From Candidatus Aenigmatarchaeota archaeon (lineage in GTDB: Archaea > Aenigmatarchaeota > Aenigmatarchaeia > CG10238-14 > SCSR01), in assembly GCA_039000165.1 (NCBI GenBank), contig JAWBTW010000007.1:1-40609 (forward strand): 40,609 bases of DNA. The letters are read 5' to 3'. Position numbers: made by a program. Positions 18,001-24,000 of this stretch are shown here, piece after piece; positions within the stretch are counted from its first letter, which is position 1, and each line of letters opens with the position of its first letter.

Positions 18001-21000
18001 CTTTTTAATTCATTAATAATTTTCTTCTGCTCTATAAGCTCTTTGAGTATTTCTAATTTTCTCAAAACTTCAAGGTTAGGTTGAGTAATTTTTCTTATTA
18101 TTTCTCCGTTCACGTAAGTTTCTCCGTTATACTCCTTTACTTTTCCTATTACTAGAACAAGGTCGCCAATATCCACATTTTGCAACAATTCTGTTTTTTC
18201 TCTGAAAGTTTTCACTCTTATAGCCTCGGTACCATCGTCTATTGTTATCGTTGAATAATTTCCATCTTCGCTCAAGAACTTATCTATGACACTAGCTATC
18301 ATATTTACTCTTGAAACTTTCTGCCCAAATGGTGTAATTAAATAGCTTTCTTTCATATTTTCCTTTTCTCCAGGAAAGTATTTCCCATAAACTAAATCTG
18401 AAATCCTTACTTTCTTTGCAGGTAATCTTTTTGTAGTCATTCAATCACATTTTCTGAAGTATTCCAGGTCTAGGTTCGAACAGCGTTCCATTACTTTTAA
18501 GCTCATTTAACATCTTTTCTATATCAAATTCTTTTAATCCTCTACTCTTTGCTAGCTTCACTATATCTTCTTTTGGAATGTTTTTACCTACAGTATTCGT
18601 CAATTCCTCTATAACTTCTAGCAATATTCTAATTTTACTTCTTTGCGTTGCGGTCAAATGGCCTTCTGCCCTATCTATATCTATTTTTCCAATTTCTGGA
18701 TCAAAACCAAACTGCCTTAAAGAAGCTTTCATAAGGTTTATTGCCCTTATCGCATCTTCTTTTGTAACCTCATTTCTGAGCTGAACTTTTGCTGATGCTT
18801 CAGCAAGTCTTATGAGAGCTTCATACTGTCTTAAAGTTATCGGTATAGGAGCTTCTTCCCCACTAGATTTTTCTCTCAACTTTACAAAAAACTCTTTTAT
18901 GGTTTCTCCAGCCTCTCTCGTGAGTTTTGGATGGCAGTTTTTTCTTGCGTAAGCTACATATTTTCTTATGAACTCAGGCTCAATTTCTGGTTTAATTTCT
19001 TCTTCTTCATAATGTCTTGCTTTTAGGATATGCTCGGCAATTTTTGCGTCTAGCTCAGGGTTTGGCACATCTCTTAGAGCAAACTTCAAGTCAAACCTTG
19101 CTAAAAGAGTTTCTGGAATGTCTATTTGCTCTTTTATCGGTAAGTAGGGATCAAACCTTCCAAGCTTGGGGTTTCCCCCTGCTAGTATGCTAGTTCTTGC
19201 AGGCAGAGTAGCTACTATGTTTGCTTTTGCTATACTAATCGTTTGTTGTTCCATCGCTTCGTGTAAAGCTATTTGATCACTCTTCTCAACCTTCTCAAAT
19301 TCGTCTATTGCGCAAAGGCTTCTGTTACACATTACCAAAGCTCCAGCTTCTAAAACCCATCCTCCCAAAAATTCTTCATCTCTTACAACTGTAGCAGTTA
19401 GTCCTGCAGCTGTTACACCTTTCCCAGAAACATACCTTCCACGAGGGATCAAGCTTGAAACAACTTTCATTAAAACACTTTTTGCCGTCGAAGGATCTCC
19501 AATTAAAAGTATGTGAATATCTCCCCTAACTCTTGACTTATCTTTTTGAACATGAGGCTCGCCGCCAAAAAGTTGCAAAACTATTGCTTCTTTTACTTCT
19601 TCTAATCCATACAAAGTTGGCCCTATGGATTTAACAAGCTTTTCGTAAATTTGAGGATCTTTTGCCAGTTCTAAGATTCTTTTCTCGTCTTCTGGAGTTA
19701 TTTCAAGCTCTTCCCACTCAACTTCTATGCTTTCGATAGAATTTGCTTCTATGTAAATTTCCACTTGTCTTGATCTTGTACCTTTCACCCTTTTTGGCAA
19801 TTCCTTTAGAATTCCTACGACTTTAATCCTGTTCCCAGGATCAGTTTTATTCTGCATTTTTGGGGAAGTTAAATCTTCCTTAAGAAAAACCATTATCTCT
19901 GAAGGCCTTTCTCCTGAAACTATCTCGAAAGGTTCTTCTATAACAATCCATCTAGCATCATAAAGTTTTTGTTTGACAAGCCTAAAGCCTTTTCTGTTTC
20001 CACATTCACACTCGATTGGAGCTTTAATCGTTCTTTCAGTCTGTAAAACTGTTATTTCTCTCCCACATTCCGGGCAGGAAAATATGGCTTCTGAAACTTC
20101 CGGTCTTATTTCGCTCGCTCTTTTTACTATCCCATCTACTGCAATCAACTTACCTATATGTTCCGAACGAATGTTTCTTATTCTTATTTCTCTACTCTCA
20201 GGTAAGTTTACTACTCTTACTCTCAGCTTTACTTCTCCAGGCAAGTCAATTTGTTTTATTGCTTCTTCAGCCAGCTCCAAAACTTCTTCAGGATTTTCAA
20301 GCAAATAATCTGCTAGTTCAGGGTCGAACTTATCAAGAAGAGAAAAATCTATCCATATTGATTTTTTTCCTTCGTTTACAGCGCTTACTAAATCGTTATA
20401 GTATTCTTCCCTTAAAAATTCGATGAACTTTTCTATTATATTTTCCTTTTCCACGCTTTTTTATTGTATTCAAAGTTTATTAAATTTTTCTAATTTTTGA
20501 AATGTTTCAGAAAGTTACTTGCTCTTTACTAGCGCACCAATTTCCTTTAACTTCCTTGAAACTTTTTTTACAGCGCTTTTTACATCTTCCACACTTCTAG
20601 CTCCAGTGCAAACAATCTTCCCTGACCCAAAAAGAAGAAAAGCTACTTTTGGGTTGTCCATCCTGTACACTAAACCAGGAAACTGCTCAGGTTCATATTC
20701 AGAATTTTCAAGGTTAAAAGCTATTGTATCCAAGTTTAGGTTTGCGTCAAGCTTCGCTGAGGCAACTATATTTTCTATCTGGACTTTTACTCCTCTCGGA
20801 ACTTTTACTCCTGTGCTTTCAACAACTTTAATAACTTTTTTTATTACTGTATTTACATCTTCCACACTTCTAGCTCCAGTGCAAACAATCTTCCCTGACC
20901 CAAAAATCAGCGCAGCAGCCTTAGGGTTTTTAACCCTGTACACTAAACCAGGAAACTGCTCAGGTTCGTATTCCATTCCTTCTAACTTTGAAACTATCTT

Positions 21001-24000
21001 CTCCAAAGTTACATTCACTCCAAGTGAAGCAGAAGCAACAATGTTTTCTATCCTTATCTTAAAATCAGTCATCACATCACCTATACTTTTAATTTAAAGA
21101 AGAAAGTATTTAAATAACTTTTTATGCTTTTCGAAAAATTTATTAATAGACAAGGAAAAAGTTTATAAATTAAAGTTTTCTCAAACCAAGATGTAACTTT
21201 CAACTTCATTCAGAAAAGAATTCAACTTCCATATAGGAACAACGAAAGTTCCACCCTCTTTCTCTTTTACCACTTCTTCCTCGAAAAGAGTTACCAGCAA
21301 AGGATAAAATCTCATACTTTTAACCTTTAAACTTTCTTTTGCTATTAAGTTTTTTCCCAAGAATTTCTTTAACTCTTCGGTTCTTTCTTCCTGCTTTATT
21401 GCAGCTTTTATTATTTCACTCTTTTTATACCTTCCCTTTCCTAAACGCTTGCAATCAACACAAAAATTAAACCATTCCTTAACAGCTATCAGATCAATTT
21501 CATACTTTCTTTTAGTTTTAAACCTAAAATTTCTTTTTACAATAAAACCATTGGCCTCGAAAATTTCCTGAACTATTTTTTCAAAATTTTTCCAGTCAAA
21601 ACTTTTAAGTTCTTCTTCCAAAATTCTTGTTTTTAAACTTTCAATCATATTTAATTATTAGAAAGAATAAGATTTTTGCTCTTAAACAAACAAATTAAGT
21701 GGTGAAAATGGATATATTAGCCCATTTTGCGTTGGGTTTATACTTAAGCTTTAAATTTGAAAGTTATTGGCCACTATTTTTCAGTTGTATCTTTGATATA
21801 GACCATATTATTGGATACTTTTACGATAAGAGAAAAAAAACTCTTGTGGAAATTCCTTCATTTCTTCACATAGCCTACAGACCAAGAAGTTGGTTTCACA
21901 GTTTTTGGGGTTTTTTAATCGTTTTAGTTCCTTTCATTTTCTTTTTACCTTTAGAAATTGTTGCAGTTCCTCTAATTCTTCATCTTTTTCTCGACCTTTT
22001 GGATAAAAATGGAATTTTCACTTTTCCACCAATCGTTAGAAAAAAAATAAAAGGTCATTTACCAGTTGGTTATTTGGTCGAGGATCCTGCTTACTTAAAA
22101 ACTCATAAAAGGTCTCACATTCCAAGCCTTTTGGCTAGTGTTATCTTTTTCTTACTGATGATTTTAAGGGTTTGACATGGGTTTAAAGTATGCAGCTTTT
22201 CATTGGTTTATTCACTTCTTTCTTGTTTTCCTTTTAGCAAATTTTCTTAATGCTGATTTTTATTCACTTCTTTTAATTTTCTTTTCAAGTGTTTTTATCG
22301 ATTTGGATCATTTACCAATCCTTTTGAAAAAAGGAATAAGAGGGATAATTACTTTCGAAAAACCTAGAAAGTACCTCTTCCACAACTTTTTCTTCTTAGT
22401 TTTTTTCGCCTCTCTTTCAATTTTACCAATCTATTTTCTCCTTAGGCTAGTCTTTTTTTCTTTATTCTTACATTTGATTTGGGACTTGGTTGAGGATGTT
22501 TTAATTTTTAGGTTAGGGACAAAACATTGGTTTTTTAAAAAGAATAAATAAATTTATTCAAAGGGAGGTGAAAGAAATCCTTATCTGCGGCATGGACGAA
22601 GTTGCTTCTTGCAACGTCAAGCAGGCCGCGGAGCTCTTATTGGACCAATGGTAATTTGTGGTTTGGTAATAGAGAAAAAAGATGAAAAAAAATTGAAGAA
22701 CTTAGGGGTTAAAGATTCAAAAGAGCTTTCGCCAAAGAGGAGGGAAGAATTAGCTAAAATTATAGAGGAAATAGCAAAAAATTTAGTTGTTTTAAGAATT
22801 CCTGCCTGTAGAATTAATAGCTATATGGACAAGAAAATAAACCTAGATAAAATAGAAGCTATGAAGATGGCTGAGATAATTAATATGGTAGACGCAAAAG
22901 TAGTTTATATAGATTCTCTTGGAAACACAAACGGTTCCAAAAATAAGAGGTTCGAGAAACTAATCTTAGAGCATTTAACAAGAAAAAATGTGAAATTGAT
23001 AGTTGAAAATTATGCGGACGAAACTTATCCTGTAGTTTCTGCTGCTTCGATAATAGCTAAGGTAGAAAGGGACAAAGCGATAGAAGAGTTAAAATCAAAA
23101 GTTAATTTTGATTTCGGTGTGGGTTATAGTCATGATCACAGAACAATAGAATTTCTAAAGAAAGTTTTAACAGAATACAAAGAAAGGCCAAATTTCATAA
23201 GGTGGCATTGGGATACCGTTGAAAGTGTTGCGACAAAATTATTAGAAGAGGGCAAAAACTTGCAACCATGGGTAAAAAAAGAAATCCTGGGAGAAAAGTC
23301 TTGGCAGAAAAAAGTAAAAGATTTCTTTTTTAAAAAAGTAAACTGTAAAGAGGGAGAAGATGAAAGTAATTAAAAAAATTACGATAGTGTTTTTGATAGC
23401 CGGAATTGCTTGCGGAATAATTTCGTACTACTTTTCAAAATTTTTAGAAAACTTAACTTTTTCTTTAACATTCCCATTTATAGTTTATTTTGTTCTTCTT
23501 CCCGCCTTCAAAAAACAAACAAAAATAAAAGTTTTAGTTTATAACAGTTTTATTACTTTTGTTTTGTTTTGGCTTTTAAGCTGGTTTACTCTATACGCTT
23601 TGTGAGATTATGCTTAAAAGAACTCATTACACAAGCGAGTTGAAAAAAAATATAGGGAAGGAAGTAATCATTTCTGGCTGGTGTCATGATATCAGGTTAA
23701 TAGGAGGAGTAAACTTCCTTTTGTTAAGGGATAAAGATGGAATAATCCAAGTAACTGCTAAGAAAGGTGAAGTTCCTGAGAAAATTCTTGAAATTTACAA
23801 AAGTTTACATCAAGAAGATGTTTTAAGTATCAAGGGTAAGGTTGTTAGGAGTAAAATAGCAAAAGGAGGAATTGAAGTAATTCCTTCTGAGATTGAAATT
23901 ATAAGCAAGGCTCAAACTCCTTTGCCGTTAGACCCTAGAAATGTTACTCCTGCAACTCTAGAAACAAGACTTGAATGGCGTCCTCTTGATTTGAGAAGAA

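Follow-up and report, generated by a model that had tools for sequence, protein, structure and literature searches.

TFE/TFIIE is regarded as the third general initiation factor. In vitro, TBP and TFB suffice and stimulation by TFE depends on the melted region, as described in passages of PMC7289017 and PMC4495717. Thermoplasmata have been reported to lack both TFE-alpha and TFE-beta (PMC4495717, PMC7289017), and the passage of PMC7289017 on this subject names only Thermoplasmata as being without both subunits. For these organisms, factor-independent clamp opening has been proposed. TFE-beta is described as absent from DPANN, Thermococcales and Methanococcales (PMC7289017, PMC5861453).

The ATN clade of very small symbiotic archaea (Aenigmatarchaeota, Terrarchaeota/EX4484-52, Nanohalarchaeota), published as monophyletic in the portion of PMC13195033 concerned, resembles Thermoplasmata in being an archaeal lineage without recognisable TFE. 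However, the two are unrelated, and in most ATN genomes neither TFE nor DUF6015 is seen; the DUF6015 family is commonest in Thermoplasmatota. Because DUF6015 resembles the TFE winged helix, the loss in Thermoplasmata may be partial. As in the lineages devoid of TFE-beta, a TFE subunit is lost lineage-wide, but there the alpha subunit stays, whereas ATN lose the alpha subunit itself. With canonical archaeal initiation ATN share TBP, TFB, the Rpo4/7 stalk, the clamp coiled coil and the TATA spacing; in contrast to T. kodakarensis, TFE-alpha is missing, an Rpo7 lysine is unconserved and the Rpo7 loop is shorter. We found no published report of TFE loss in this clade. The absence contradicts general statements that DPANN possess TFE as well as the statement that Nanohalobium retains complete transcription machinery; in the Nanohalobium supplements, "TFIIE" appears in the host's row only. 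A three-phylum clade without TFE would mean that living cells can do without the factor and would offer natural material for asking how the clamp is opened and DNA melted when TFE and TFIIH are both missing, a question that is testable because the clade includes a cultivated nanohaloarchaeon. Shared TFE absence is also a gene-content character in favour of ATN.

Basal transcription genes of the source genome

The window analyzed here is a stretch of 40,609 nucleotides from an Aenigmatarchaeota genome (G000). It encodes a TBP at 20515..21072 on the minus strand, 185 aa from its ATG (NF001597, 248 bits), in which PF00352 aligns in two stretches (221 bits), as expected for the two repeats; a GTG at 21075, one codon upstream, would give 186 aa. 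A TFB of 313 aa lies at 29078..30019 on the minus strand (NF001658, 417 bits, over the cut-off). This copy is the one typical of the lineage, with 64-99% identity to records that for the most part bear the label Aenigmatarchaeota, while a second TFB on contig C1 (PF00382, 100 bits, plus PF08271) shares 45% identity with it. ORFs that we take, from sequence motifs, to be Spt5 and TFS are present and Rpo4 was found. All these genes except Rpo4 had been listed by the first-pass annotation, and its list stands. It was also correct that Rpo7 is missing here but present in relatives. Spt4 is missing as well, and both absences are attributed to an assembly gap because contig C15 breaks off within a gene that, in a close relative, lies ahead of rpo7-spt4.

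The reported lack of TFE-alpha in this genome was confirmed. PF02002 and TIGR00373 reached at most 15 and 14 bits, and the zinc-ribbon motif list contained no ORF joining an extended winged helix to a zinc ribbon. A broad profile run without candidate filter gave a top score of 22.6 bits, compared with 62-97 bits for six spiked divergent TFEs; the same search yielded 21.7 bits in G114, a single 875-kb contig, and 27.6 bits in G566, the complete genome of Ca. Nanosalina sp. VS9-1. The weak matches in G000 were rejected as TFE and correspond to DUF2582, an HTH-nucleotidyltransferase and an 87-aa HTH_24 protein. For this genome alone a gap may hide a TFE, though none of its five congeners has one.

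Deletion of tfeA failed in H. volcanii, as stated in the relevant part of PMC5861453, and therefore some compensation would be expected in ATN. Gyrase was considered as such compensation, but a search of G000 with short gyrase motifs gave no match. A non-homologous factor, such as the second TFB, Spt4/5 or a lineage protein, could have taken over clamp opening, and both the dissimilarity of the two TFBs and the intact clamp coiled coil, the site shared by TFE and Spt5 (examined in G000), would fit such a takeover. Yet reading by eye the 229 small ORFs common to G000, G114 and G566 revealed no standout, and we judge a replacement of this kind to be improbable.

Distribution of TFE-alpha and its exceptions

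Using one model (NF004910), two-domain TFE-alpha was detected in 5/371 Aenigmatarchaeota, 0/70 Nanohalarchaeota and 0/42 genomes of a third phylum, which we infer to be EX4484-52/Terrarchaeota, compared with 148/151 Nanobdellota. The survey was confined to these four phyla, with Undinarchaeota, SpSt-1190 and cluster 1 DPANN outside it. As a control, Rpo7 was recovered in 95/99, 66/70 and 36/42 genomes of the three ATN phyla and in 41/41 Nanobdellota. Restricting the analysis to high-quality Aenigmatarchaeota gave TFE in 3/98 and Rpo7 in 94/98. With 478 of the 483 ATN genomes lacking it, we are highly confident that two-domain TFE is truly absent from most of the clade. The source genome, which is only 91.6% complete and has lost Rpo7 and Spt4 to a gap, might suggest that the absence only reflects weak profiles or bins that are incomplete. 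For the clade, this reading is already refuted by the Rpo7 controls, the near-complete recovery in Nanobdellota and the filter-free searches of G566 and G114, which found no TFE; it retains virtually no probability.

The first-pass annotation had proposed TFE-less initiation across Aenigmarchaeota. This survives the completeness and sensitivity controls and holds for nearly all genomes, but it is not specific to the phylum, since the whole ATN clade is covered, and it has exceptions in the form of four divergent TFEs that look native; "none" is wrong with TFE in five genomes. Similarly, the view that other DPANN keep TFE applies to Nanobdellota but not to the two sister phyla. That no match exceeded the cut-off is uninformative because TFE-bearing Nanobdellota fail it too: TFE is present in 148 of their 151 genomes, yet 0/151 reach the cut-off of NF004910. 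The low Pfam cut-off was passed by 30/201 Aenigmatarchaeota, and among the passing matches listed most were TrmB/Lrp/MarR-like winged helices. A second profile that included the divergent TFEs retrieved no new full-length TFE in 371 genomes, and leave-one-lineage-out searches recovered the divergent TFEs at 37-65 bits, well above the best score in G000. Genome-wide TFE searches scored only 6-8 candidates per genome, and sensitivity for proteins consisting of a winged helix only was marginal (spiked TFEs 27-45 bits, native winged helices 22-24 bits).

Five Aenigmatarchaeota carry a TFE with winged helix and zinc ribbon (G024, G039, G115, G159 and G268). The canonical TFE of G268 was rejected as native and treated as foreign: its bin is 58% complete, and on the 16-kb contig that carries it only 4/18 ORFs have G000 matches, all partial or generic. 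The other four, one of them from the source genome's own family (G024), are very divergent and N-terminally extended. Winged helix, linker helix and zinc ribbon were found in each, the zinc ligands align, and NF004910 scores 38-56 bits over both domains, far under the curated 180-bit cut-off, which real Nanobdellota TFEs miss too. A structural model of the G024 protein (pLDDT 81) had TFE/TFIIE-alpha chains as its top four PDB matches. Judged by their predicted domain make-up, these four proteins are TFE-alpha.

The divergent TFEs fall into three lineages of 17-21% identity, whose N-terminal extensions are unrelated to one another and whose gene neighbours differ. In G024 the gene lies behind tRNA-Leu, a slot that holds other genes in 5/5 congeners. 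In G001, TyrRS and SerRS are separated by just 4 bp; in G039 and G115 the TFE gene lies between the two, on the opposite strand. GC content is 4-10 points under that of most flanking genes for three of the four genes and only 2-6 points under for G115. Overall, the four genes appear inserted. The donor lookup returned 4 named clusters among 20 proteins, too few to name a donor. In a quick tree the proteins form long branches whose placement fails, and because the tree cannot place them they may be vertical relics: the ATN ancestor would have kept a dispensable TFE that was lost many times, leaving four copies under relaxed selection. The proteins lie outside the Nanobdellota TFEs in a tree compatible with one origin, retain zinc ligands and a TFE-like fold, in the case of G039 and G115 group with 7 database proteins, and in these two genomes coexist with the Rpo7 lysine, all of which fits relics. 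However, very many losses would be required, even within a genus (TFE in 1/9 g6 genomes), and the low identity among lineages, insertion-like positions and low GC point away from relics, so that we regard them as a rather unlikely explanation.

Winged-helix proteins as candidate remnants

Alternatively, TFE could have shrunk to a fast-evolving, DUF6015-like or unrecognised winged-helix-only protein that would bind clamp and bubble, with joint decay of the zinc ribbon and of its docking site on Rpo7. Decay of the Rpo7 loop fits this equally well, and Sulfolobus TFE zinc-ribbon deletion mutants still stimulated transcription, according to the results excerpted from PMC4495717. DUF6015 itself was detected in 20/371 Aenigmatarchaeota and, as one divergent copy overlooked by the genome searches, in G114. 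In Atlas features, this protein of 123 aa comes out as DUF6015-like (0.92), with TFE clusters as the next structural rows (TM 0.50-0.51); it aligns to the TFE alignment at 88% in hhalign and has PF02002 as its sole Pfam match (20.5 bits). On the other hand, its score of about 21 bits against TFE profiles equals the level of unrelated winged helices. DUF6015 is limited to five families, where it occurs in ORFs of 124-616 aa and often in multiple copies; it is found in 0/69 genomes of G000's family and in 0/23 and 0/19 genomes of families f2 and f3 of its order. In sister phyla it was found in 0/4 genomes by the search that also overlooked the G114 protein.

The 87-aa winged helix of G000 (contig C17) aligns to the TFE alignment at 94% in hhalign, but to canonical TFEs at 32%. 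Its top Pfam match is HTH_24, and its alignment contains neither a zinc ribbon nor the aromatic wing motif. In a fold search Z-alpha/MarR proteins came first (Z 11.6), and TFE took ranks 30 and 45, its Z of 10.0 and 9.7 falling within the range of 9.5-11.6 covered by many winged helices; Atlas rows were mixed. The family is not a near-universal single-copy one, occurring in 13/99 genomes of two families only, and coexists with the full TFE in G024. It was tried together with its divergent neighbour, which matches neither TFE nor Pfam, as a pair of TFE-alpha/beta remnants and rejected because its range is too narrow. Further, no small winged helix is common to G000, G114 and G566 (BLAST E<1e-4); those shared are about 260-310 aa long and are presumably TrmB/ArsR-like proteins. 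We consider a shrunken TFE unlikely and think it fairly probable that most ATN genomes are without a winged-helix-only substitute.

Stalk, melting region and a probable loss of TFE near the ATN root

The explanation we favour, with some reservation, is a loss of TFE-alpha at the base of the ATN clade or close to it, with initiation by TBP, TFB and the stalk-containing RNA polymerase alone. A single loss near the root is likewise somewhat better than an even prospect. Promoters would then open without the TFE lever or any substitute for it, Spt4/5 would face no competitor at the clamp, and the four native exceptions would have been regained or relocated. Going further, ATN could be the only large archaeal clade that is truly TFE-free, with Thermoplasmata keeping a winged-helix-only TFE in DUF6015. 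The clade would have lost TFE once and then retuned stalk and melting region to become a natural minimal archaeo-eukaryotic system of two factors (TBP and TFB), a few lineages having reacquired TFE in an accessory regulatory role; this wider proposal is tentative.

Loss of the stalk as a cause was rejected, since Rpo7 and Rpo4 are retained. Neither the hydrophobic patch of Rpo7 nor the clamp coiled coil (the latter inspected in G000 only) was seen to be eroded, the Y95/F98/L107 patch being intact. In the T. kodakarensis structure 6KF4, an Rpo7 lysine forms a salt bridge with TFE, as described in a section of PMC7704642. The K152 equivalent is lysine in 29/29 Nanobdellota but in only 17/108 ATN sequences (10/55, 3/29 and 4/24), making it the most randomised among 43 Rpo7 columns conserved in Nanobdellota. 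The loop comprises 14-15 residues in 40/47 anchored Aenigmatarchaeota, compared with 16 in Nanobdellota and 18 in T. kodakarensis. The docking lysine may have been relaxed because its partner was gone. The correspondence is imperfect: Sulfolobales carry T at this position, two of the four TFE-bearing Aenigmatarchaeota (G024, G159) lack the lysine and several TFE-less families retain it.

TATA boxes lie about 30 nt upstream of start codons. An AT-rich melting region is also known in some TFE-bearing archaea, as noted in part of PMC7289017. An AT excess at positions -12 to -1 over positions -22 to -13 was absent or unmeasurable in small locus sets (Terrarchaeota +3.1, n=17; Nanohalarchaeota 0.0, n=7). 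The AT content of positions -12 to -1 exceeded that of positions -22 to -13 by 6.7 points in G000, 5.8 points in G114 and 13.6 points in G566, compared with 0.4 in Nanobdellota loci around a few gene families, and such an AT-richer melting region may aid promoter opening.

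Distribution of TFE-alpha

The TBP gene is located at 20515..21072 of the window and, as the first-pass annotation had stated, the genome (G000) encodes two TFBs, one in the window (contig C7, 29078-30019) and one on contig C1, which are 45% identical to each other. The nearest relatives of the window TFB mostly carry the label Aenigmatarchaeota. The C1 copy (L546:722-1654) has a longer linker and was possibly acquired from outside the clade. A 92-aa ORF at window 27428-27706 presumably resembles the RNA polymerase subunit Rpo11. Rpo4 is present; Rpo7, correctly described as absent, is missing together with Spt4 because of a gap at the end of contig C15. 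For TFE-alpha, likewise said to be absent, neither PF02002 nor TIGR00373 gave a match in G000 scoring more than 15 bits.

The TFE-alpha profile NF004910 was run against all 371 Aenigmatarchaeota genomes (E<=0.001). Matches were obtained in 31 genomes, five with 38-179 bits spanning both TFE domains and the remaining 26 at 21.3 bits or below. Among 98 high-quality genomes (completeness >=90%, contamination <=5%), TFE was found in 3 and Rpo7, our completeness control, in 94. The same profile detected TFE in 148 of 151 sampled genomes of Nanobdellota, the phylum to which G204 (labelled Woesearchaeota) belongs. Omitting G204, an unpublished genome, gives 147 of 150; its TFE contributes one row to each of alignments A1 and A4. 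Among genomes of the G203 phylum, TFE was found in 0/42 and Rpo7 in 36/42. In the phylum that includes both G566 (complete Ca. Nanosalina sp. VS9-1) and Asbonarchaeum, two-domain matches occurred in 0/70 and Rpo7 in 66/70. Partial matches, all <=25 bits, were seen in 14 of these 70 genomes; of 15 such matches 4 were inspected, and we assume that three are winged-helix regulators and the fourth is a ribosomal-type protein. Hence the proposed phylum-wide absence of TFE is real and has a broader range than claimed, but is not total, and the claim that other DPANN keep TFE holds for Nanobdellota and fails for these two phyla. Three features lead us to infer that the G203 phylum is EX4484-52/Terrarchaeota: it differs from the Nanosalina phylum, the TFB of G203 has 72-86% relatives that mostly carry Nanohalarchaeota or Nanobdellati labels, and the Rpo7 of the phylum has a non-acidic composition (D+E 0.15 vs 0.25). 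Aenigmatarchaeota, Terrarchaeota and Nanohaloarchaeota have been described as one clade, ATN (PMC13195033).

The great majority of archaea are reported to have TFE-alpha, and deletion of tfeA did not succeed in H. volcanii (PMC5861453). Thermoplasmata are, as the first-pass annotation had it for PMC7289017, the sole lineage named as lacking TFE-alpha in the consulted parts of that paper and of PMC4495717. DPANN are stated to have TFE (PMC8204110), and the Nanohalobium transcription machinery is termed complete (PMC7443923). In term searches, 'TFIIE' appeared solely in the row of the host in three supplements of PMC7443923, four supplements of PMC9563170 contained the TBP KO and lacked K03136, and three of PMC7414124 gave no match. 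The consulted sections of PMC13257274 and PMC8407114 do not mention TFE loss. Consistent with the earlier claim for DPANN, our literature search found no paper describing a loss of TFE in ATN, nor any on DUF6015, although the J Mol Biol TFE review (2016), the PMC13195033 supplement or subscription journals may hold one.

Exceptional TFEs and candidate substitutes

One of the five two-domain proteins, the canonical TFE of G268, was rejected as native since its contig has almost no G000 orthologues; this contig (L304, G268 C1), the largest of a 58%-complete bin, appears foreign. The 245-aa TFE of G024, from the same family as G000, is encoded on a native contig, where most of the neighbouring genes have 41-69% matches in G000. 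The top four PDB matches of its structure model were all TFE/TFIIE-alpha chains, a fold match that is not fully independent as the model was made from a TFE alignment. The gene follows tRNA-Leu, in a slot occupied by other genes in 5/5 congeners examined; behind tRNA-Leu(CAG), gene content varies within this genus (L303:10064-11347; L308-L312), with TFE in one genome. G039 and G115, of one genus, carry forms of 293 and 377 aa between TyrRS and SerRS on the opposite strand; the two synthetase genes adjoin each other in G001 of the same family. G159 has its TFE on an 8-kb contig whose origin is uncertain; there, a SepCysS gene lies directly after tRNA-Cys and next to this divergent TFE (L305:3329-4719). 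All four proteins have N-terminal extensions. Those of the G039/G115 type (P0002, P0003, P0006, L024) resemble a second helix-turn-helix by eye, and that part has no Pfam match. In a quick tree of 74 rows (every third database match plus 15 Nanobdellota loci), the four fall on long branches outside the Nanobdellota TFEs, and they may have a single origin.

A profile including the divergent TFEs retrieved no additional full-length TFE across the 371 genomes, in searches scoring just 6-8 candidates per genome; the next matches reached <=35 bits over a single domain. Leave-one-lineage-out profiles recovered omitted TFEs at 37-65 bits vs <=22.6 for G000 ORFs. With a broad, unfiltered six-frame profile built from 141 database TFEs (P0012-P0152; 11 Aenigma-type proteins excluded), six spiked divergent TFEs scored 62-97 bits, and the top native ORFs only 22.6 (G000), 21.7 (G114, a single-contig Aenigmatarchaeota genome) and 27.6 bits (G566). 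A derivative reduced to the winged helix may nevertheless remain in these genomes because the gap nearly vanishes for this domain alone (spiked TFEs 27-45 bits vs native ORFs 22-24). G000 shares 229 ORFs of 45-330 aa with both G114 and G566, and no small winged helix resembling TFE was found among them.

An 87-aa protein on G000 contig C17 has a generic winged-helix fold, is conserved in 13/99 genomes of two families and co-occurs with TFE in G024; hhalign gave 94% to A1 and 32% to canonical TFEs. On C17 (L003:1486-2112), two such genes are arranged divergently, and the pair is kept together in several genera from families f1 and f2 as the neighbours change. The best match in G114 is a DUF6015-like 123-aa protein (L156:1387-1755) with TFE-like features and TFIIE_alpha as its sole Pfam match. 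DUF6015, which may be a TFE without zinc ribbon, was found in 20/371 Aenigmatarchaeota genomes and in none of families f1, f2 and f3 by a search that overlooked the G114 copy. It is most frequent in Thermoplasmatota, a lineage said to be without TFE.

Promoters, Rpo7 and proposed initiation without TFE

Most ATN genomes lack a two-domain TFE and retain other parts of the machinery, and we infer compensation for the missing factor. Most likely, TBP and TFB would recruit a stalk-containing polymerase whose clamp would open unaided, with an easily melted start region replacing the lever of TFE.

In G000, G114 and G566, as in Nanobdellota loci, TATA-like starts peak at -32..-29 relative to the start codon; this peak about 30 nt upstream suggests that many transcripts of the three genomes are leaderless. 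AT content at -12..-1 minus that at -22..-13, counted from the start codon, was +6.7 points [3.4, 10.0] in G000, +5.8 [2.4, 9.0] in G114, +13.6 [10, 17] in G566 and +11.3 in Aenigmatarchaeota loci. The difference was +0.4 [-3.8, 4.2] in 72 Nanobdellota regions, and +3.1 and 0.0 in two small locus sets. An AT-richer melting region is a lead only, because start codons stand for start sites and the loci used for comparison are skewed towards a few gene families.

The Rpo7 elements that bind the zinc ribbon of TFE in T. kodakarensis are K152, the 150-157 loop and a patch formed by Y95/F98/L107 (PMC7704642). The K152 column holds lysine in 29/29 Nanobdellota (best 30 of 41 loci), 10/55 Aenigmatarchaeota (12 best-scoring rows, 40 picked across families and 3 more), 3/29 of the G203 phylum (best 30 of 36 loci) and 4/24 Nanohalarchaeota (best 24 of 66 loci); rows from kin are not independent. 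G204 and two further rows, one identical and one duplicate, were removed. Nanobdellota conserve 43 columns at >=95%, and among these the K152 column is the most randomised in each of the three ATN groups, with I60 close. A link between lysine loss and TFE loss is weakened by Sulfolobales, which have TFE although the lysine is absent, and by the TFE-bearing G024 and G159, which also lack it. The intact Y95/F98/L107 patch likewise counts against an eroded docking site. Of the Aenigmatarchaeota rows, 47 could be anchored and 8 could not, and the Rpo7 loop has 14-15 residues in 40 of the 47. In the other groups it has 16, so the shortening is specific to Aenigmatarchaeota. The clamp coiled coil of G000 is intact, as expected for the Spt5 site. 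Rpo7 of family f11 (L493, L494), in which no loop anchor was found, is highly divergent, with 116-119 bits vs about 200.
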